Shown: positions 55,883 through 64,000 of the stretch, one piece after another
Layout: the number at the start of each line of letters is the position of its first letter
How positions within the stretch are numbered: the first letter of the stretch is position 1
Source of the DNA: Bacteriovoracaceae bacterium
GTDB taxonomy: Bacteria > Bdellovibrionota > Bacteriovoracia > Bacteriovoracales > Bacteriovoracaceae
NCBI GenBank assembly: GCA_016784965.1
Contig: JADHTQ010000004.1
Location: 17,990-81,989 of the forward strand
Length of the DNA: 64,000 bases
Reading direction: 5' to 3'
Notes under the pieces: generated by a model
Told to the model about the DNA's origin: nothing
The model's database searches: none
Seen by the model: the letters and a program-made list of their open reading frames with translations, nothing else
Position numbers and translations under genes: made by a program

Positions 55883-57043
55883 TTAGATCCAGACTCCGGG
55901 TATCTGCTCGCCACAGGAGCACTTGCCACCTTGTAATAAATTATTTTGGATACTATATCCATTTCTTTTAATTACATGGGTTTTGCATTTTGGGCAGATT
56001 GTATCTTGATAGTCACTACCTGGGACATTTCCTACATAAACAAAATGAAGGCCTGCAACTTTGGCCACTCTGTAGGCTTCCTCTAAAAGGGGGATCGGGG
56101 TAGAAGGAAGATAGCGCAAATTGTACGCTGGATGAAATCGAGAAAAATGCAGTGGCACATCCCTGCCTAAATTTTCTACAATCCACTTACACATCTGCTC
56201 TATATCTTTTAAATCATCTGAGTGGTGGGGAACAACTAACCTGGTGATCTCTATCCAAACATCATTTTGTCGCATAATCTCAAGGCCCTTTAAAACTGGG
56301 GCAAGCTGAGCATTGGTCATTTTTTTATAAAAAGAATTACTAAAACTTTTTAAATCTACATTGGCGGCATCAATTGATTTACATAACTGCTTTAAGGGTG
56401 ACTCGTTTATATATCCCGCTGTTACTAACACATTTTTAACATTATTGTTTTTGGCCACAAGGGCCGTATCTTCTACATATTCATAAAAAATTATGGGCTC
56501 TGAGTAGGTATAGGCAATTGAAGTAAGTTTTTTCGCTTTTGTTAGCTCCACTACCTTTTGTGGCATTAGGTCCATATTTGTAGTTTCGCCTGGACGAGAT
56601 TGAGATATTTCCCAGTTTTGACAGTTTGAGCAGCGCAAATTACAACCGGCAGTGGCCAAGGATAAAATACCTGTTCCGGGTAAAAAATGATAAAGGGGCT
56701 TTTTTTCTATGGGATCAATGTGCAAGGCACAGGGGTTACCATAGGCCACAGTATACAACTGATTATTTTTAACTACCCTTGTTCGACAAAAACCTCGATC
56801 ATTTTCGGCCAATATGCATTGATGAGGACATAAACTACATTCCACCATACCACCAACACTACTTTGCCATAGGGCCTTTTTAGACCACTTCCACAAATTT
56901 GCTGGTGCATCGTTATAAAACCCTACTCTGAGCCCATAACGATTATTTCCAGTTATTATGTCATTGATCGTATAAGCGCCTAAAGCTGTGCCACCTGTGG
57001 CTATGATGAACTTTTTTAAAAATGTTCGTCTGGTGACTGACAA
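55883..57043 (-). CDS. AmmeMemoRadiSam-type (PflA-like) radical SAM enzyme carrying an N-terminal twin-arginine signal
   Basis: CSLCPHQCILAENDRGFCRTR, CNLRCSNCQNWEIS (CX3CX2C) and C-terminal CPKC...CSCGEQIPGVW match that family's pattern. The N-terminus (M)SVTRRTFLKKFIIATGGTALGAYT fits the (S/T)RRxFLK Tat consensus. TTG start 7 nt after AAGGAA. Confidence 0.7.
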   Translation of the reverse strand: MSVTRRTFLKKFIIATGGTALGAYTINDIITGNNRYGLRVGFYNDAPANLWKWSKKALWQSSVGGMVECSLCPHQCILAENDRGFCRTRVVKNNQLYTVAYGNPCALHIDPIEKKPLYHFLPGTGILSLATAGCNLRCSNCQNWEISQSRPGETTNMDLMPQKVVELTKAKKLTSIAYTYSEPIIFYEYVEDTALVAKNNNVKNVLVTAGYINESPLKQLCKSIDAANVDLKSFSNSFYKKMTNAQLAPVLKGLEIMRQNDVWIEITRLVVPHHSDDLKDIEQMCKWIVENLGRDVPLHFSRFHPAYNLRYLPSTPIPLLEEAYRVAKVAGLHFVYVGNVPGSDYQDTICPKCKTHVIKRNGYSIQNNLLQGGKCSCGEQIPGVWI

Positions 57044-57121: not shown

Positions 57122-58099
57122 TTAGAAGGCTTTTTTGATCACATTGTCTCGAATGGGGATTGGATCTTGCAAATATTGGTTCAGGGCAGAAACTAGCTTT
57201 TCAATGCTTTCTGATTGTCCCTGTAGAGATCTTACAAGATGTGACATATTTACTACGCCACCTTTATCTTTTGCATGATACCCAACTTTATCCCACAAGG
57301 CCTTAAGGCACTCTTCAAAATCCTCAATGGTTTGGTCTTGCAAGGCATCCGTTGCAAAAAATCCATTTAGTAAGGTTAACACTATAGAGAAAGTAATACC
57401 TACAATACTTGAGTTTAGGGCAAAAGAAATTTGGGTTAAAAAACTTGCAATTACCTCTTTGGCCGATCCCGGATCACCAACTAAGTCAAGTCCGCCAATA
57501 ATGGGCAGAGCACCCATCATTCCCAAAAATGTTCCAAGAATACCAAACACAATCATCAGGCCTGGAATAATTTGTAAAAAGCGACTAAGTGAAGGAATTG
57601 GAAGTATTCCAAATAAAACATTACTATTATTTGATTGCGAAAATATTCTGTGGGAAAACTCTTCAAAATTTGGAGTTCCATCACTTTGGCTGTACAATTC
57701 TTTATGGTGAACATCTTGCACTAGTTCATACAAGCTTATATCATATTTAAAAATAACATCCAACCTAGTCCTACTTTTATCAAACCTTCTGTGTTGATGA
57801 GCTCTTCTTTTGGTTACATACGAATCAAGTGCCTTATCACAAACCTTGTGTACAACCTCTTTATACCTATCGATTATTGACTCATTGTCATGTATATCAT
57901 CTTCTAAGGTTCCCTCTTTGTTGTAATAGTCCATTTCCTTTTTAATAAATACGACAAACCTATTATCGATCTTAAAGCTTTGTTTAATTAACACTTTAAG
58001 GATTATTGAGACAAAAAAGACCACTATCATAGCAGGGACTAAGTTGTTCATGAGACCTAGAACATAAATATTATAAATTTCGCGAAAAATATTTTCCAT
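57122..58099 (-). CDS. MotA/TolQ/ExbB-family proton-channel protein (3-TM ExbB-like topology)
   Basis: IIPGLMIVFGILGTFLGMMGAL carries the family G-x-L-G-T-x-x-GM motif. A second C-terminal TM pair partner is ISFALNSSIVGITFSIVLTLLNG. One N-terminal TM helix and a ~130-aa loop. RBS GAGG lies 13 nt after the upstream stop. Confidence 0.7.
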   Translation of the reverse strand: MENIFREIYNIYVLGLMNNLVPAMIVVFFVSIILKVLIKQSFKIDNRFVVFIKKEMDYYNKEGTLEDDIHDNESIIDRYKEVVHKVCDKALDSYVTKRRAHQHRRFDKSRTRLDVIFKYDISLYELVQDVHHKELYSQSDGTPNFEEFSHRIFSQSNNSNVLFGILPIPSLSRFLQIIPGLMIVFGILGTFLGMMGALPIIGGLDLVGDPGSAKEVIASFLTQISFALNSSIVGITFSIVLTLLNGFFATDALQDQTIEDFEECLKALWDKVGYHAKDKGGVVNMSHLVRSLQGQSESIEKLVSALNQYLQDPIPIRDNVIKKAF

Positions 58100-58112
58100 C
58101 TCTATTACCTCA

Positions 58113-60620
58113 TCACAGTTTTATAGTGTCTAAATATTCTAAATCCTTCTTTGTGAGTGCTTTTACCAGGGAAAGTTTAATTTCTACTCTCCTTGATAAT
58201 CGACAATCATAGGGCCCACATCTTTGTTTATCTGCAACACTGGCCAGCTGTCGTGTAGGAGCAGATAAAACAATGGACTCCGCGTGAGAGCTGCCCTTTA
58301 TAGATGCTATATTTTGCATTTTCCCTCTGTTTTTTAAACTGATGGGAAAAGTTTTATGCTTGTTTATAAATAAAAAGCGGTAAACAGCGGCAGCACGCTG
58401 AAGACTTAGGTCCATATTGTAAGAATGAGCTACCTTATTTACTGCCGTCGGAGAAACATAATGTCCAACGTATCTGGGACTTGAGTGCCCTTCGATGAGA
58501 ATCTTGTCCACTTTGGCCCTTATTTGTTTGTTAGAAAAAAAGTACCTTAAAATTATTTTAGAGGTACGCAAAAGCCTCATTTTCATCCTGGTGCTGAGTA
58601 GATAACTATCAACTTTAAAAAGTAAGTCATTTACAAAGACAAATGAAATTTCATTTTTAATTCTGTCATATTTGACTATGGCATTACCACCAACTGCTCT
58701 TGTTAGTAAGGTCTCTAACTTGTCATAGTTGTTTACTTCTGCAGGGGTGAGAGTTCTATATTTTTGCAGCTGTTGGTTAGCTCGCCTCAAATGACCGAGG
58801 CTCTCTCTTAAAGTGGAGTTGTCCTTACTTAGATCTCTATTTTTTTTGCCTAATCTATCAAGCCCCAATAACTTTAAAAGAGACTTCTCCTGCTGTTTGG
58901 CCTGCTTTGCAAAAGCTCCCCTTTTTAGAGTTTGAAATGGATCAACAGCAGACTGAGCTCGTACAATTTGAGCAGATTTTTCTTTGGCCTTTACTAGTTG
59001 TCTTCGCAGTTTTCCAATTACATTTCTGCTGTTTTGAATTGCCTTATCATTTTCACCAATCATCTCTTTGAGCTGCCCATTGGTCTTTGCTATGCCTTCT
59101 AACTTCTGTCTAACTTTACCACCCATAAGCTTACTCTCGCCCAGGGCATTCTTCAGATCACCAATTTGTTTACGCAGAGCTGACAACATTTCTTGCTGTC
59201 TTTTGACCTGACCGGCAGCATTTTTATTTAACTCCTCCAGTGCCTGCTTTTGACTTTTTGCAACTGAAGCTGTTTTGCGACTTGCCTCTATCATTTTTTC
59301 TTTGGCATGTAGTTGGGCAGTCTTCTCGTTGATTTCATTTTGATTCTTCTGCAGCATCTGTTTATATTTTTCATTAGCCGCTTTTAAATTATTTAACTCA
59401 AGTTGTGCGGCTGTTGCTGTTTTGCGACTTGCCTCTATCATTTTTTCTTGTGCATTTAGTTGGGCCGTCTTCTCATTGATCTCATTTTGATTCTGCTGCA
59501 CCATTTGTTTATATTTCTCATTGGCGACTCTTAAAGTATCTAACTCTTTTTGAGCACTGGCATTTGTCATCTCCCTTTGTTGCAGGGCACTTTTTGCTTC
59601 CGCCATGTCTTTTGAAATTTTATCAATTTTAGCTTTTCTTATTTTTGCTAGCTCTATACTTTTTTGATATTCATCTTTATAGTCTTCTAGTACCTTCTTA
59701 CTATGAACTAGCTCTAATTTAGCGAGTTTTGCGGCCTTGATTAGTTTATCTGTCTGCTTAATTAGCTTTTGCTTCTTACTAATTTCAAGTTGTTTTTGTT
59801 CAATTGTTTGCTTTAATTTACTATTAACTTCCTCAGTTTTAGCAAACTTTTGTTGAACTTGTGAACTCTCCAACTCTCTTTGCTTTAAGCTTTCTTTCAT
59901 CACGTCAATTTTTTTACTTAGCTGTGTTATTTGCTCTTGTTTGTTCTGTGATAGTTGTTCAACTTTTTTATAATCTTCTTCGACAATCTTTTTCTGCTGC
60001 GCCATGGCCTTTTCATGGTCCCTGGCAGCTTTTATCATTTTATTTTTAATCCTTATGACTTCTGCTTTTTTAGATATTTTTTCCTTATTATTTTCAATCT
60101 GTCTTTCATACTCTCGCTTTACATCTTCAAGTTTTTTGAGCTTCACTTTATTTTTTACTACCTTGTCAGCTTCAACTTTTAAATCACTCTCAAGCATCTT
60201 AACTTTTTGAGCAAGGGCCTCAAGTTTGGTGTGCTTTCTTTTACTAAGTGCCGCAATTTTCATGTAATCGGTCTTATAATCTTCAATGATCTTCTTTTGA
60301 TTTTTAACCGTCTCAACAAAGGTATTCATCTCCTGAAGCTTTTGTTGCCAATCTTCCATATCCTTATACGTCTGCTCTAAGGACTCGGTTCTTTTTTGTA
60401 CATTATGGGTAATTTTAGTTGGGATATCTTTGTCAACGTTGATCTTTTCGTCTTCAAATTCCTGCTTTAAAACAGCAGTATTGATCCCTTCTTTTACCGC
60501 ACTAAAAATGTACAACATCAAAAAGATGATAAACAAGACAGTAAAAAGATCACTGTAGCTTGCCCAAAACGTACCATCTTCACCTTGTTTCTTTTTTAAT
60601 TTTTTTGCTAATTTATTCAT
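58113..60620 (-). CDS. MotB-like protein: MotB-type TM/plug with conserved Asp + ~570-aa coiled coil + OmpA-like peptidoglycan-binding domain
   Basis: WASYSDLFTVLFIIFLMLYIF matches the MotB W-x-x-Y-x-D-x-x-T-x-L TM motif. A long K/E/Q-rich heptad region follows. C-terminal IEGHSSPRY...DLSLQRAAAVYRFL...LSRRVEIKL is OmpA-like. Confidence 0.7.
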   Translation of the reverse strand: MNKLAKKLKKKQGEDGTFWASYSDLFTVLFIIFLMLYIFSAVKEGINTAVLKQEFEDEKINVDKDIPTKITHNVQKRTESLEQTYKDMEDWQQKLQEMNTFVETVKNQKKIIEDYKTDYMKIAALSKRKHTKLEALAQKVKMLESDLKVEADKVVKNKVKLKKLEDVKREYERQIENNKEKISKKAEVIRIKNKMIKAARDHEKAMAQQKKIVEEDYKKVEQLSQNKQEQITQLSKKIDVMKESLKQRELESSQVQQKFAKTEEVNSKLKQTIEQKQLEISKKQKLIKQTDKLIKAAKLAKLELVHSKKVLEDYKDEYQKSIELAKIRKAKIDKISKDMAEAKSALQQREMTNASAQKELDTLRVANEKYKQMVQQNQNEINEKTAQLNAQEKMIEASRKTATAAQLELNNLKAANEKYKQMLQKNQNEINEKTAQLHAKEKMIEASRKTASVAKSQKQALEELNKNAAGQVKRQQEMLSALRKQIGDLKNALGESKLMGGKVRQKLEGIAKTNGQLKEMIGENDKAIQNSRNVIGKLRRQLVKAKEKSAQIVRAQSAVDPFQTLKRGAFAKQAKQQEKSLLKLLGLDRLGKKNRDLSKDNSTLRESLGHLRRANQQLQKYRTLTPAEVNNYDKLETLLTRAVGGNAIVKYDRIKNEISFVFVNDLLFKVDSYLLSTRMKMRLLRTSKIILRYFFSNKQIRAKVDKILIEGHSSPRYVGHYVSPTAVNKVAHSYNMDLSLQRAAAVYRFLFINKHKTFPISLKNRGKMQNIASIKGSSHAESIVLSAPTRQLASVADKQRCGPYDCRLSRRVEIKLSLVKALTKKDLEYLDTIKL
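59269..59562 (-). repeat. tandem duplication, 2 x 147 nt (49 aa), inside the coiled-coil region
   Basis: GCTGTTTTGCGACTTGCCTCTATCATTTTTTC... recurs at 59269 and 59416. The protein copies are ANEKYKQMVQQNQNEINEKTAQLNAQEKMIEASRKTA and ANEKYKQMLQKNQNEINEKTAQLHAKEKMIEASRKTA. Confidence 0.85.
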
Positions 60621-60690: not shown

Positions 60691-63537
60691 TCATCGCGCC
60701 AAGCGACTGAAATTAGTTACTATGCCAATAGGACACAGCAGACGACAAAAACTTCTGCGAATAAATATAGACAAAATATTGAAAAAAATGACAGCACCCA
60801 CGATTGTAGCACTGGTGGTGTAGCTGTTATGAAAAAAATAATTATACCAGTCAAAATTAGATGAAGACAGCGATTTAGAGGGACCATCAACTTTTATATA
60901 TAGCCCAATAACCACAATGACAATTACAGCTGAAACAAAGCTGATCAACTTTGATTTTTTTAAACTACTGCGACAAATTTGGGCCTGACCATCTTCTAAA
61001 GTGCCGATGGGACACATTCCATAGCACCACATCTGGCGGTCTAAGTTGATAAGCAGTGCCGCTGGGATAAAATATGCTCGCATAATGCCAAAAACACACT
61101 TTCTAGGACATGCATGACAAAAAATATAAGGTACACTAAAGTAGCATCTAAACAATGGATAAATTGCTAAAGGCCAAAAAGCAAAAAAATAAATCCATGA
61201 AGTATACTTCACATTGAATTGCCATTTGGGGTTGTAGGCGACAGTAATTTTCCAAGCAAGTATTATCAACAAAACATAGTGCAACCAGGGCCTAAGAGAA
61301 AAGGCATACACAATTGCATTGGTTTTTGGTATAACCATTGAAAGTCCAATCCCCCAAAAGATAAATAACATCAATCCATAACTTAAAAATTGCTCTAAAT
61401 TTACGTCCTTAAATGGCCTATAAGCGGATGTAACTTTTGGGATTACAACTAATCCCAAAATTGATGTGATCTTTATAAGCATAATGATCAACAAGGACTT
61501 GTGAATTCCCAAATAGGGGATCATAAATGCACTTATTAAAAATGCTCCCAGCGCTCCTCCCAAAAAATCTAAAGCATAGACAAATCCAGCGGTTTCAGTG
61601 GCGTTTACGGGTGACGTTTTTGCAATGTAGGCCAACTGGCCCCCCAATAAAATACCAAATAGGGTGTTATAAACTGGTGTTGCAAATGCTGAAGATAAGG
61701 GGCCAATTACAATTACAAAAATAAACAAAACAATCAAAAAGTCAGCTTTTAAAAGCAGCCTGGAGGTGTTTAACTTAGATCCAAAGAAGGCACCAATTGC
61801 CAAGCCAAGAATAAAACATGTAATAATAAAACTTAGTTGGTTGTAAAGATATCCAAAACGTATTTGGTATAGCAAAATGAGAATTACTTGCATTCCCATT
61901 GCACTAAAGCTACTAGACAAAAGAGTAAATGAATCCGCAAGCTCACTGCTTTTTGCTAATAAAATAAAGACAACAATAACAATTCCCAAAATTAATAATA
62001 TGGGAATTAAAAGAGTTGCATCTAGCTTTTTTAACCAGTATTGAAAATGATAGTAGTATCCAATGGGTGATAGATCCCGATTTACAAGTGAGTTCGACTG
62101 CACTAAAACTTTTGCCTGTCTTAAGCGATCTGGGGTTAAGATACTTTTTAGATAATTGGAATTGACAAACTTGGTATCTAACTTCTCTTTTTTAATTTTG
62201 TCACCAATGTTGTAACTTAAAGCACTAGCAGATGCCAGAAAATAGTTTTGACCCCCTGGAATTATTATTATCTGCTCAAAACAATTTGCCAGGGCCTTAT
62301 AAACTGATGATGAAAATTGCTTTAACTCTTCAGAGTCGTAATTGGCAGAACTGCTAAGGGCAAAAGACAAAATACCACCTTTACCAAGTGCACCTTTTAC
62401 AATTTTAAAAAATTCTTGAGTATAAAACCTTCCAATTTGTGCATTGATTGGATCGGGCAGATCAATTATAACGACATCGTATTTATGCTCACCTGAAGTG
62501 TTTGCCAAAAATTTGATAGCATCACCACTAATGAAATTAACTTTTGGTTTAGTGATAGTTGATGCTTGTTTTTTGGCAAGAGCTAAAATTAATGGGTTTT
62601 GTTCTACCAGATCAATACTGTTAGCGTCATGGTATTTGGCAACTTCAAATATCAAATTATTAACACCTCCAGAAACAAGCAAAACCCTCTTAGGCAAGGG
62701 GTGTTGAATCATGGCATAATGAACTATCTCTTCTGACTGGCCAACATGAGGTATTGAAGCAATTGGAGTTCCATTTTCATAAATACTTACTTGACCTCTA
62801 TCTTCAGTTATAGCAACAACACCATAAGGAGTTGATTGATGTAGCAATATTTTTTTTGTGGGATATTGTGCTTTTAGTATTTTTTCTTCTAAGGAACCGC
62901 TCACAATTACAACCGGTACAACAATGGCCAGCAAAGTGGCAACTATGCTTAAGCTCTTATACTGGTAGTAATAAGTTAAAACTGCGGCCACAAGCAAGTT
63001 TATTACACACAACAAGACCAATGTTTGGAAGGAGTCCAAAAAATAAACAAGACAAAAACTAAAAAGCAATCCCCCAACTAAATCGCCAAGAGAATCTAGA
63101 AAATATATTTTAGCAACTCCTGCACCTTCTTGATAATCCTTAGTGATTATAAAAACAAAAAAGGTCATTAGGGCACCAGAGAGCAAACAAATTGGCAAAA
63201 GTCCCACAAAAGAGAGCCAAAAGGCTTGAAACAATCCGACAGAAATGCCTACAACAATGATACTTTTGTAAATCGTTAACGCCCAAAACAAAAGCAGTGG
63301 CAAGATGGCGAGGATAAATTGACAAATAATTAAAAGGACTTTTGTATTTTTAATCTTCTGGCCAAATTGGCCAATAAATGCACCCGTGCCTTGAAGAAGC
63401 GCCCAGTTGCCTAAAACCAGACCAATGGTTAGCTCATTGCCAGAAAATAGTGTGAGAAATTCTCTAAGAAAAACAAACTGAGTGATTAAAGCAGAGATTC
63501 CAAGTGAAGTGATACACAAATATATTACATAACTCAT
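60691..63537 (-). CDS. polytopic membrane fusion: N-terminal multi-TM + spermidine-synthase-like (SAM-fold) domain + second multi-TM block + C-terminal CX3CP (NapH/NosR/CcoG-like) module
   Basis: VLLVSGGVNNLIFEVAKY...DLVEQNP...YDVVIIDLPDP...FYTQEFF are SpeE-like motifs flanked by many TM helices. The C-terminal ~200 aa contains FCHACPRKC, WCYGMCPIG and FCRLLCPIG between TM helices. Confidence 0.65.
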   Translation of the reverse strand: MSYVIYLCITSLGISALITQFVFLREFLTLFSGNELTIGLVLGNWALLQGTGAFIGQFGQKIKNTKVLLIICQFILAILPLLLFWALTIYKSIIVVGISVGLFQAFWLSFVGLLPICLLSGALMTFFVFIITKDYQEGAGVAKIYFLDSLGDLVGGLLFSFCLVYFLDSFQTLVLLCVINLLVAAVLTYYYQYKSLSIVATLLAIVVPVVIVSGSLEEKILKAQYPTKKILLHQSTPYGVVAITEDRGQVSIYENGTPIASIPHVGQSEEIVHYAMIQHPLPKRVLLVSGGVNNLIFEVAKYHDANSIDLVEQNPLILALAKKQASTITKPKVNFISGDAIKFLANTSGEHKYDVVIIDLPDPINAQIGRFYTQEFFKIVKGALGKGGILSFALSSSANYDSEELKQFSSSVYKALANCFEQIIIIPGGQNYFLASASALSYNIGDKIKKEKLDTKFVNSNYLKSILTPDRLRQAKVLVQSNSLVNRDLSPIGYYYHFQYWLKKLDATLLIPILLILGIVIVVFILLAKSSELADSFTLLSSSFSAMGMQVILILLYQIRFGYLYNQLSFIITCFILGLAIGAFFGSKLNTSRLLLKADFLIVLFIFVIVIGPLSSAFATPVYNTLFGILLGGQLAYIAKTSPVNATETAGFVYALDFLGGALGAFLISAFMIPYLGIHKSLLIIMLIKITSILGLVVIPKVTSAYRPFKDVNLEQFLSYGLMLFIFWGIGLSMVIPKTNAIVYAFSLRPWLHYVLLIILAWKITVAYNPKWQFNVKYTSWIYFFAFWPLAIYPLFRCYFSVPYIFCHACPRKCVFGIMRAYFIPAALLINLDRQMWCYGMCPIGTLEDGQAQICRSSLKKSKLISFVSAVIVIVVIGLYIKVDGPSKSLSSSNFDWYNYFFHNSYTTSATIVGAVIFFNILSIFIRRSFCRLLCPIGIVTNFSRLAR

Positions 63538-63625: not shown

Positions 63626-64000
63626 TTATAGTTCAGTATTGAGCTTACAAGTTAAAAGAACGTCTCCAAAATCTTCAAGCTGCATTTTGCCTGTAATCAA
63701 AACTTCATCATCTGAAGCAACAGCAAGCTTCAACCAAAAGCGATGAATAGTTTCACCACCGTTTACTTCACCATCATCTGCATCAAATGCAAACGAGCCA
63801 TCTATTTTTTCAGGAAGCCCCATATCTTCTTTTGTTTTTGCTAAAAATGGTCCTGTTGCCAGCATAAAATGCACATCATCTATCTGTTGTGATAGTGCAG
63901 CTATGAAAGTTGGTCTTTTGGTATCGGGGCTGCTGATTTTGGCCACATCTGCTAGAATTCTCAATGTAACCTTTACTTTTTCCTCCTCAAATTGAGCTGA
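63626..64000 (-). CDS. hypothetical protein, probably 5'-truncated by the window edge
   Basis: The frame stays open to base 64000 (SAQFEEEKVKVTLRILADV...). The TTG at 63964 on the ORF track lies 17 nt after GGAGG, which is poor spacing. No motif recognised. Confidence 0.35.
   Translation of the reverse strand, partial: SAQFEEEKVKVTLRILADVAKISSPDTKRPTFIAALSQQIDDVHFMLATGPFLAKTKEDMGLPEKIDGSFAFDADDGEVNGGETIHRFWLKLAVASDDEVLITGKMQLEDFGDVLLTCKLNTEL

Follow-up and report, generated by a model that had tools for sequence, protein, structure and literature searches.

A SpeE-fold membrane protein fused to an eight-cysteine Fer4_5 module as the probable membrane subunit of an apparently exported AmmeMemoRadiSam system

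The DNA analysed in this study is a stretch of 64,000 nucleotides from a Bacteriovoracaceae bacterium (assembly GCA_016784965.1, contig JADHTQ010000004.1, positions 17,990 to 81,989), in the following called the window. On its minus strand, a single unbroken open reading frame (ORF; 60691-63537) encodes the 948-residue protein P0001, a polytopic membrane protein that combines a domain with the fold of the spermidine synthase SpeE with a C-terminal module of the Fer4_5 type. Here, we show that this module carries eight invariant cysteines, and that the gene is linked, in this window as well as in many other genomes, to a radical S-adenosylmethionine (SAM) enzyme of the AmmeMemoRadiSam type that bears a twin-arginine (Tat) signal. 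The membership of the gene in an AmmeMemoRadiSam system is well supported, and we consider it probable that P0001 serves as membrane subunit in a variant of this system that is exported. How such a subunit might work can be inferred from its parts.

Both parts of P0001 were recognized in domain searches. Pfam detects Spermine_synth (PF01564) at residues 268-434 with 75.5 bits (cut-off 22.9), and the protein passes the cut-off of the NCBIfam family NF037959, 'fused MFS/spermidine synthase' (47.8 versus 40 bits; MFS, major facilitator superfamily). The Fer4_5 domain (PF12801) is borderline at residues 915-944 if the full-length protein is scanned (20.5 bits, cut-off 22) and significant if the C-terminal 235 residues are scanned alone (26.6 bits). 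The cut-offs of all aminopropyltransferase and NapH equivalogs of NCBIfam are missed by far: P0001 reaches 78.6 versus 249.55 for TIGR00417 and 134.9 versus 472 for PRK03612, and 17.7 versus 213 and 19.6 versus 234 bits for the NapH models TIGR02163 and NF007013, respectively. Moreover, Pfam finds no match to FMN_bind (PF04205; FMN, flavin mononucleotide) in P0001. A previous sequence-only reading of this DNA had described the 948-residue ORF with its three Cys-Pro motifs (CHACP, residues 807-811; CYGMCP, 838-843; CRLLCP, 931-936) and had taken the product for a polytopic SpeE-fold protein with the CX3CP signature of NapH and NosR. The ORF list and the translation confirm the former, and the latter agrees with the matches to Spermine_synth, NF037959 and Fer4_5; the last of these domains is present in all 36 members of the module family that were tested. 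The G+C content of the gene (0.34-0.37) is similar to that of the 4.59-Mb genome (0.372).

An AlphaFold2 model of P0001 built with 44 homologues (mean predicted local distance difference test, pLDDT, 90.7; predicted TM-score, pTM, 0.90) contains three sets of seven, seven and six helices, and the SpeE fold (residues 216-504) is placed between the first two of them. The transmembrane helices (TM) of these two sets are TM1-7 at residues 2-30, 35-61, 65-93, 102-132, 137-166, 169-190 and 194-213, and TM8-14 at residues 510-529, 533-561, 565-586, 593-611, 619-641, 646-676 and 678-698. The membrane part is internally duplicated: residues 2-192 (TM1-6) are homologous to residues 531-700 (TM9-14; hhalign, 96.5%, E 8e-10), and the two six-helix repeats are parallel in an MFS-like, transporter-like arrangement. 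Since the SpeE fold is inserted between TM7 and TM8, it lies opposite the side of the inter-repeat loop. With the N-terminus inside, the loops contain on average over the alignment 28.6 lysine and arginine residues inside versus 7.8 outside, and because of this bias the SpeE fold is assigned to the outside. TM7 and TM8 are both highly hydrophobic, and the loops before and after the SpeE-like domain show a charge bias that agrees. The predicted topology thus has the SpeE fold and the segment C798-C814 outside, and both CX3CP motifs as well as the C-terminus inside; the stand-alone versions of the module start with a short basic N-terminus, which is consistent with this prediction. A SpeE-like domain that faces the cytoplasm is not what the topology predicts. 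Some relatives deviate at their N-termini: P0005 (L004:6001-8484) has about 110 additional residues with hydrophobic helices that could alter the orientation of its N-terminus, and two reading frames (L032:6032-10840 and L033:4981-8964) run about 600 residues upstream of the SpeE-like start without any Pfam domain, which may be either a spurious extension due to the high GC content or a genuine additional N-terminal part.

The C-terminal module (residues 714-948) consists of the six remaining helices of the model (714-735, 750-768, 776-796, 815-830, 863-888 and 910-922), and the protein ends 12 residues past the second CX3CP motif, without a C-terminal ferredoxin domain. An exhaustive HMMER search with these residues identified a family of 147 members, counted as cluster representatives: 44 are at least 850 residues long and have the module as their C-terminal part, and 61 others are stand-alone modules of 170-300 residues, so the separate gene that had been considered earlier does exist. 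In 44 full-length and 35 stand-alone homologues, eight cysteines are invariant (C798, C807, C810, C814, C838, C842, C931 and C935), proline, glycine and arginine residues flanking them are also kept, and the distance from the CxxCP motif to the first CX3CP motif is constant (31 residues). Because of this invariance and the fixed spacing, the motifs cannot be ascribed to chance, and the lack of conservation among orthologs that the sequence-only reading had considered as an objection is not observed. That reading was right about the presence of the three motifs; the conserved set, however, is not these three motifs but the eight cysteines, including an outer CX8CX2CPX2C. No relative of the module was found in the PDB, neither by a sequence profile search nor by a Foldseek fold search. 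In the sister architectures P0022-P0025, an FMN_bind domain is present, and a NosR-like module composed of FMN_bind and Fer4_5 takes the position of the eight-cysteine module.

The SpeE-like domain is complete with respect to its fold. It matches SpeE structures in the PDB by sequence (E 4e-18) and by Foldseek, with TM-scores of 0.69-0.74 over 270-290 residues, the N-terminal beta-hairpin domain included. Positions conserved across relatives are E312, D314 (Asn in P0001), D339, D354, N369 (Gly in P0001), R370, T373, E375, D488 and P491, and among them are E312 and D339, which, going by the established structures of SpeE, correspond to its ribose- and adenine-binding acids. The Asp of the GGGDG loop of SpeE selects decarboxylated SAM (dcSAM) over SAM. 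In P0001 this loop reads SGGVNN, and Asp is found at that position in none of the 44 fused and 25 broader relatives. The catalytic aspartate (D173 of the human enzyme) corresponds to D359 in P0001, and is Asp in only six of 25 relatives; among the fused proteins, A, F, N, L or G take its place. The catalytic aspartates of SpeE, to which the sequence-only reading had drawn attention, are thus not conserved. In P0001, Tyr79 of SpeE is replaced by Gln, and both aspartates of the DxxDP segment are kept (IIDLPDP). Since the residues that bind ribose and adenine are conserved and the GGGDG loop and the catalytic Asp are not, we infer that the domain binds an adenosyl ligand and does not transfer aminopropyl groups. 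Judged by these residues, an activity as aminopropyltransferase is unlikely.

A scan of species-representative genomes yielded 66 loci with the module, all from metagenome-assembled genomes of Myxococcota, Planctomycetota, Verrucomicrobiota, Binatota, Thermodesulfobacteriota, Nitrospinota, Omnitrophota, Woesearchaeota, Nanoarchaeota and Methanosarcinales. A single ORF covers both the SpeE-like protein and the module in 31 loci, separate genes within 10 kb of each other encode them in 14, and in 21 no SpeE-like gene is present within this distance; a SpeE-like gene is thus close to the module in 45 of the 66 genomes. In a phylogeny of the module, fusion prevails among the bacterial lineages, and archaea and Omnitrophota have the two parts split. 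Even if the genes are not linked, the partner is rarely absent: 18-19 of the 21 unlinked genomes encode a SpeE-like polytopic protein elsewhere (E <= 1e-117), and seven of 12 sampled loci of such unlinked genes adjoin a Memo-AMMECR1 or a radical SAM gene. The fusion had been regarded as unusual, and this did not hold, as it is present in 44 clusters and 31 species genomes; accordingly, relatives that always encode the two parts separately, the other objection considered beforehand, are not what we found. A gene for a TIGR04337-like radical SAM enzyme is located within 10 kb in 41 of the 66 loci and directly downstream on the same strand in 33. A Memo-AMMECR1 gene is present in 35 and usually comes next after the downstream radical SAM gene, and all four elements occur together in 32 loci in the order SpeE-like, module, radical SAM, Memo-AMMECR1. 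In two Myxococcota genomes, Spermine_synth, Fer4_5 and Radical_SAM are even joined in one protein (L067:7517-11788, 1424 residues; L068:354-4433, 1360 residues). The context is similar for related proteins without this module: the module-less homologues P0003, P0005 and P0012 (loci L001, L004 and L007) adjoin genes for a Memo-AMMECR1 fusion and a radical SAM enzyme, and the 1293-residue P0024 (locus L008), a version with the NosR-like FMN_bind and Fer4_5 domains, is encoded beside Memo-AMMECR1 and radical SAM genes. It is this conserved linkage and fusion that had been overlooked when the protein was described without its context. The neighbours of the stand-alone modules in Omnitrophota, Methanosarcinales and Nitrospirota (a glycosidase of family GH1, a DEAD helicase, PAP2, MoxR and others) revealed no common context. 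In Omnitrophota loci, including L034 and L063, a stand-alone gene for the eight-cysteine module is kept between the GH1 glycosidase and the DEAD-box helicase genes, and in the same organisms the SpeE-like partner is far off and adjoins Memo-AMMECR1 elsewhere in the genome.

The partner proteins carry signals that suggest a location outside the cytoplasm. The N-terminus of the radical SAM enzyme in the window, MSVTRRTFLKK, corresponds to the consensus twin-arginine motif, and almost all of the linked radical SAM proteins carry an RR motif at their beginning, which is where the alignments set in. The Memo-AMMECR1 fusion proteins have Sec or lipoprotein signals in L001, L004, L007 and L008 as well as in this genome, where the lipoprotein signal reads MNRLLIIICLLITGC. 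Moreover, in the triple fusions the linker past the module retains the sequence DRRLFLRR followed by a short, weakly hydrophobic stretch. This motif requires that the C-terminus of the module is cytoplasmic, and the arrangement suggests a combined insertion by Sec and Tat. From these sequence features, the radical SAM enzyme and Memo-AMMECR1 appear to act outside the cytoplasm. In locus L008, the radical SAM gene has no obvious Tat signal, and an ORF for 60 residues (L008:4218-4400) is located between it and the Memo-AMMECR1 gene.

The features of the gene and of its neighbourhood are collected in the table. The Memo-AMMECR1 gene of this genome (C108:38943-40439) passes the cut-offs of both TIGR04336 (202 bits) and TIGR04335 (154 bits), and the genome contains two TatC genes. 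A second paralogue of the radical SAM enzyme (C108:57170-58264, minus strand; TIGR04337, 602 bits) lacks a signal peptide. A Memo or AMMECR1 gene on its own was not found next to this paralogue, and the only Memo-AMMECR1 of the genome, the lipoprotein fusion, is located 17 kb from it. Between the gene for P0001 and the radical SAM gene there is a pair of MotA- and MotB-like genes with a very long coiled coil. Because none of the 66 related loci contains a homologue of this pair, it is probably a lineage-specific insertion into the operon that does not belong to the system. Just upstream of the target gene, a protein of 168 residues with a signal peptide is encoded (window positions 63626-64000, continuing to C90:82121); neither Pfam nor NCBIfam recognizes it, and homologues are absent from the 66 related loci. 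Both the MotA/MotB-like pair and this secreted protein were rejected as members of the system, since they have no counterpart in related loci.

Table. Location of P0001, its parts and the neighbouring genes in the window.
Feature	Position	Strand	Evidence
Whole gene, 20-helix membrane protein P0001	60691..63537	-	ORF list and translation; AlphaFold2 (mean pLDDT 90.7, pTM 0.90)
First six-helix repeat (TM1-6) and TM7, which takes the chain to the outer face; residues 1-214	62896..63537	-	Model helices; repeat homology
Complete spermidine synthase fold, predicted periplasmic; residues 216-504	62026..62892	-	PF01564; PDB matches; Foldseek; topology; residue conservation
TM8, which brings the chain back inward, and second six-helix repeat (TM9-14); residues 508-698	61444..62016	-	Model helices; repeat homology
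Six-helix Fer4_5 module (NapH/NosR/RdhC type); residues 714-948	60694..61398	-	Fer4_5, 26.6 bits alone; 147-cluster family; invariant Cys columns
C798-X8-C807-X2-C810-P-X2-C814 between module helices c and d, predicted outer face	61096..61146	-	Conservation and topology
First CX3CP motif, CYGMCP, predicted cytoplasmic face; residues 838-843	61009..61026	-	Motif and topology
Second CX3CP motif, CRLLCP, predicted cytoplasmic face; residues 931-936	60730..60747	-	Motif and topology
MotA-like and MotB-like (Zorya-like) gene pair between target and radical SAM gene	57122..60620	-	Pfam and NCBIfam
AmmeMemoRadiSam radical SAM enzyme with twin-arginine signal TRRTFLKK, 3.6 kb downstream, co-directional	55883..57043	-	TIGR04337, 387 bits versus 220

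P0001 resembles several known systems and differs from each of them. RdhC, NapH and NosR have in common a four-helix module with two CX3CP motifs and have been proposed to be electron donors to exported enzymes, and the chemistry of the CX3CP motifs is unsettled (PMC5928378). As in RdhC/PceC, NapH and NosR, the two CX3CP motifs of P0001 are predicted on the cytoplasmic side and the gene is near that of a presumably Tat-exported iron-sulfur enzyme, and as in RdhC a C-terminal domain with two [4Fe-4S] clusters is lacking. In contrast to NosR and RdhC, however, P0001 has no outer FMN-binding domain but, by prediction, the outer CX8CX2CPX2C instead; unlike RdhC, NapH and NosR, it has a radical SAM enzyme as its partner and its module is fused to a SpeE-fold, transporter-like protein. 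With NF037959 it shares the polytopic core with a SpeE-fold domain; whereas the name of this family implies a polyamine enzyme, the catalytic residues are unconserved in the family of P0001, the domain is predicted to be outward between TM7 and TM8, and an eight-cysteine module of 235 residues is added. The complete fold and the acidic residues that bind ribose and adenine are common to the soluble SpeE proteins (PDB 1inl, 1uir and 2o06) and P0001, but P0001 has SGGVNN in place of GGGDG, the catalytic Asp is not conserved in its family, and its domain is membrane-inserted and, by prediction, outward. The radical SAM enzyme (387 bits) and Memo-AMMECR1 (202 and 154 bits) of this genome belong to AmmeMemoRadiSam by passing the cut-offs of TIGR04337, TIGR04336 and TIGR04335; the canonical system, however, consists of three soluble proteins without signals, whereas here there are a Tat signal, a fused lipoprotein Memo-AMMECR1 and a dedicated membrane protein. 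Finally, actinobacterial Rieske proteins are inserted by Sec and Tat together. They contain an internal twin-arginine segment after Sec-type helices as do the triple fusions of L067 and L068, an analogy that concerns the insertion route and not a sequence relationship.

Since the NapH/NosR/RdhC-like module is tied to an enzyme with a Tat signal, and since an FMN-type NosR module replaces it in the sister architectures, we propose a redox relay across the two sides of the membrane: reducing equivalents taken up on the cytoplasmic side or from quinol would reach the outer face through the cysteine module, in a manner similar to what has been proposed for NapH, NosR and RdhC and other Tat-exported iron-sulfur enzymes, and these electrons might allow the exported radical SAM enzyme to reduce its own cluster. 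The transporter-like core with the outward, adenosyl-binding SpeE fold could provide SAM or a docking site for it on the outer side of the membrane, or take away 5'-deoxyadenosine there, and polyamine synthesis would not be expected from this domain. It is tempting to speculate that these activities together form a self-contained supply line, i. e. a cysteine or iron-sulfur electron relay and an MFS-like SAM exporter or dock, for a Tat-exported radical SAM enzyme that acts with Memo and AMMECR1 on a substrate in the cell envelope; as a whole, this picture is tentative, and we regard it as less likely than not. Several points weigh against an exported system with P0001 as its membrane subunit. 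An exported system exists that does without the module, as no module was found in the L001 genome. We know of no route by which an iron-sulfur cluster could be assembled in the outer loop of a Sec-inserted protein; for this reason, the four outer cysteines may be dithiols or a metal site instead. Without an input of energy, quinol would not be a strong enough reductant for the cluster of a radical SAM enzyme, and to our knowledge SAM has not been reported to occur in the periplasm. Pfam scans of both membrane halves, alone and in three homologues, revealed no MFS or other transporter family with E up to 10. In this genome, the operon is split by the stator-like pair, and the Memo-AMMECR1 gene is located on a different contig. 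Lastly, an orthologue of P0001 is absent from all 40 relatives of the host, which makes synteny at the level of the lineage unusable.

Other explanations differ in what they deny. That two genes were joined by an assembly error or a frameshift would fit the existence of the stand-alone module in 61 clusters, but the chance of this is negligible: the identical fusion recurs in 44 clusters and in 31 species genomes, which belong to eight or more phyla, the fused state requires 3 changes on the module tree versus 22.5 with shuffled labels, and the complete chain is modelled confidently as one chain (pTM 0.90). The fusion of the module to the SpeE-like protein is genuine. P0001 might be an active, cytoplasm-facing aminopropyltransferase that depends on SAM or dcSAM, acts on a polyamine or a lipid, and is coupled to or regulated by the redox module. 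The complete SpeE fold, the two aspartates of the IIDLPDP segment and the partial match to the PRK03612 membrane aminopropyltransferases (134.9 bits) point in this direction; given that the catalytic Asp is variable, that the GGGDG Asp is absent from all sequences and Tyr79 is replaced, that every equivalog cut-off is missed widely, and that three lines of topology evidence place the domain outside, we regard such an enzyme as very unlikely. It is hardly probable, too, that nothing is exported at all, with the RR and signal-like N-termini being membrane anchors or due to chance, the SpeE fold being cytoplasmic and the protein serving as the scaffold of an AmmeMemoRadiSam system of the usual cytoplasmic kind. 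No radical SAM enzyme is known to act outside the cytoplasm, and the hydrophobic region behind the RR motif of the triple fusions is weak; these facts are opposed by the strongly hydrophobic TM7 and TM8 with an agreeing charge bias on both sides of the domain, by the RR motif on nearly all linked radical SAM proteins, by the independent lipoprotein or Sec signals on Memo-AMMECR1 in L001, L004, L007, L008 and this genome, and by the existence of a separate, signal-less radical SAM paralogue in the same genome.

A more serious, though in our view still unlikely, possibility accepts the export and concerns the chemistry of the module, which could be a thiol-disulfide relay similar to DsbD/CcdA or DsbB/VKOR, or a copper handler similar to CcoG, rather than the source of electrons for SAM cleavage. 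It would then maintain exported cysteines in the reduced state or provide the exported Memo domain with metal. The outer CX8C and CX2C next to a helix resemble the cysteine layouts of VKOR and DsbB, CcoG is a cupric reductase of the Fer4_5 family, and Memo is reportedly copper-dependent. Moreover, no machinery for iron-sulfur assembly is known from the periplasm. Buttet et al. favoured disulfides over a cluster for the CX3CP motifs, as NosR has only 8 Fe (PMC5928378). On the other hand, the direct fusion partner of the module is the radical SAM enzyme and not Memo, and in the sister architecture an FMN-binding domain of the NosR type is found at the same place. Because of this domain, we prefer electron transfer to thiol exchange or metal delivery.

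The conservation of Memo and AMMECR1 extends from bacteria to humans, both are linked to disease, and we know of no biochemical function for either of them. Radical SAM enzymes are considered to be strictly cytoplasmic, as they need SAM and low-potential electrons, and we are not aware of any description of such chemistry outside the cytoplasm. A literature search for AmmeMemoRadiSam and for the combination of Memo, AMMECR1 and radical SAM returned passing mentions only, with the main comparative study outside the reach of this search. Three findings appear to be undescribed: that the eight-cysteine module forms a family of its own, that it almost always goes together with the SpeE-like protein, and that it can be fused to a radical SAM enzyme. 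Within the NapH/NosR/RdhC type of module, our work delimits a new subfamily with eight cysteines, for which there is no solved structure, and provides a context for the hitherto unexplained 'fused MFS/spermidine synthase' family. For the AmmeMemoRadiSam proteins, a conserved and often fused membrane partner offers testable ideas on where they may act, i. e. at the cell envelope, on what may power them, and on which proteins to co-express.

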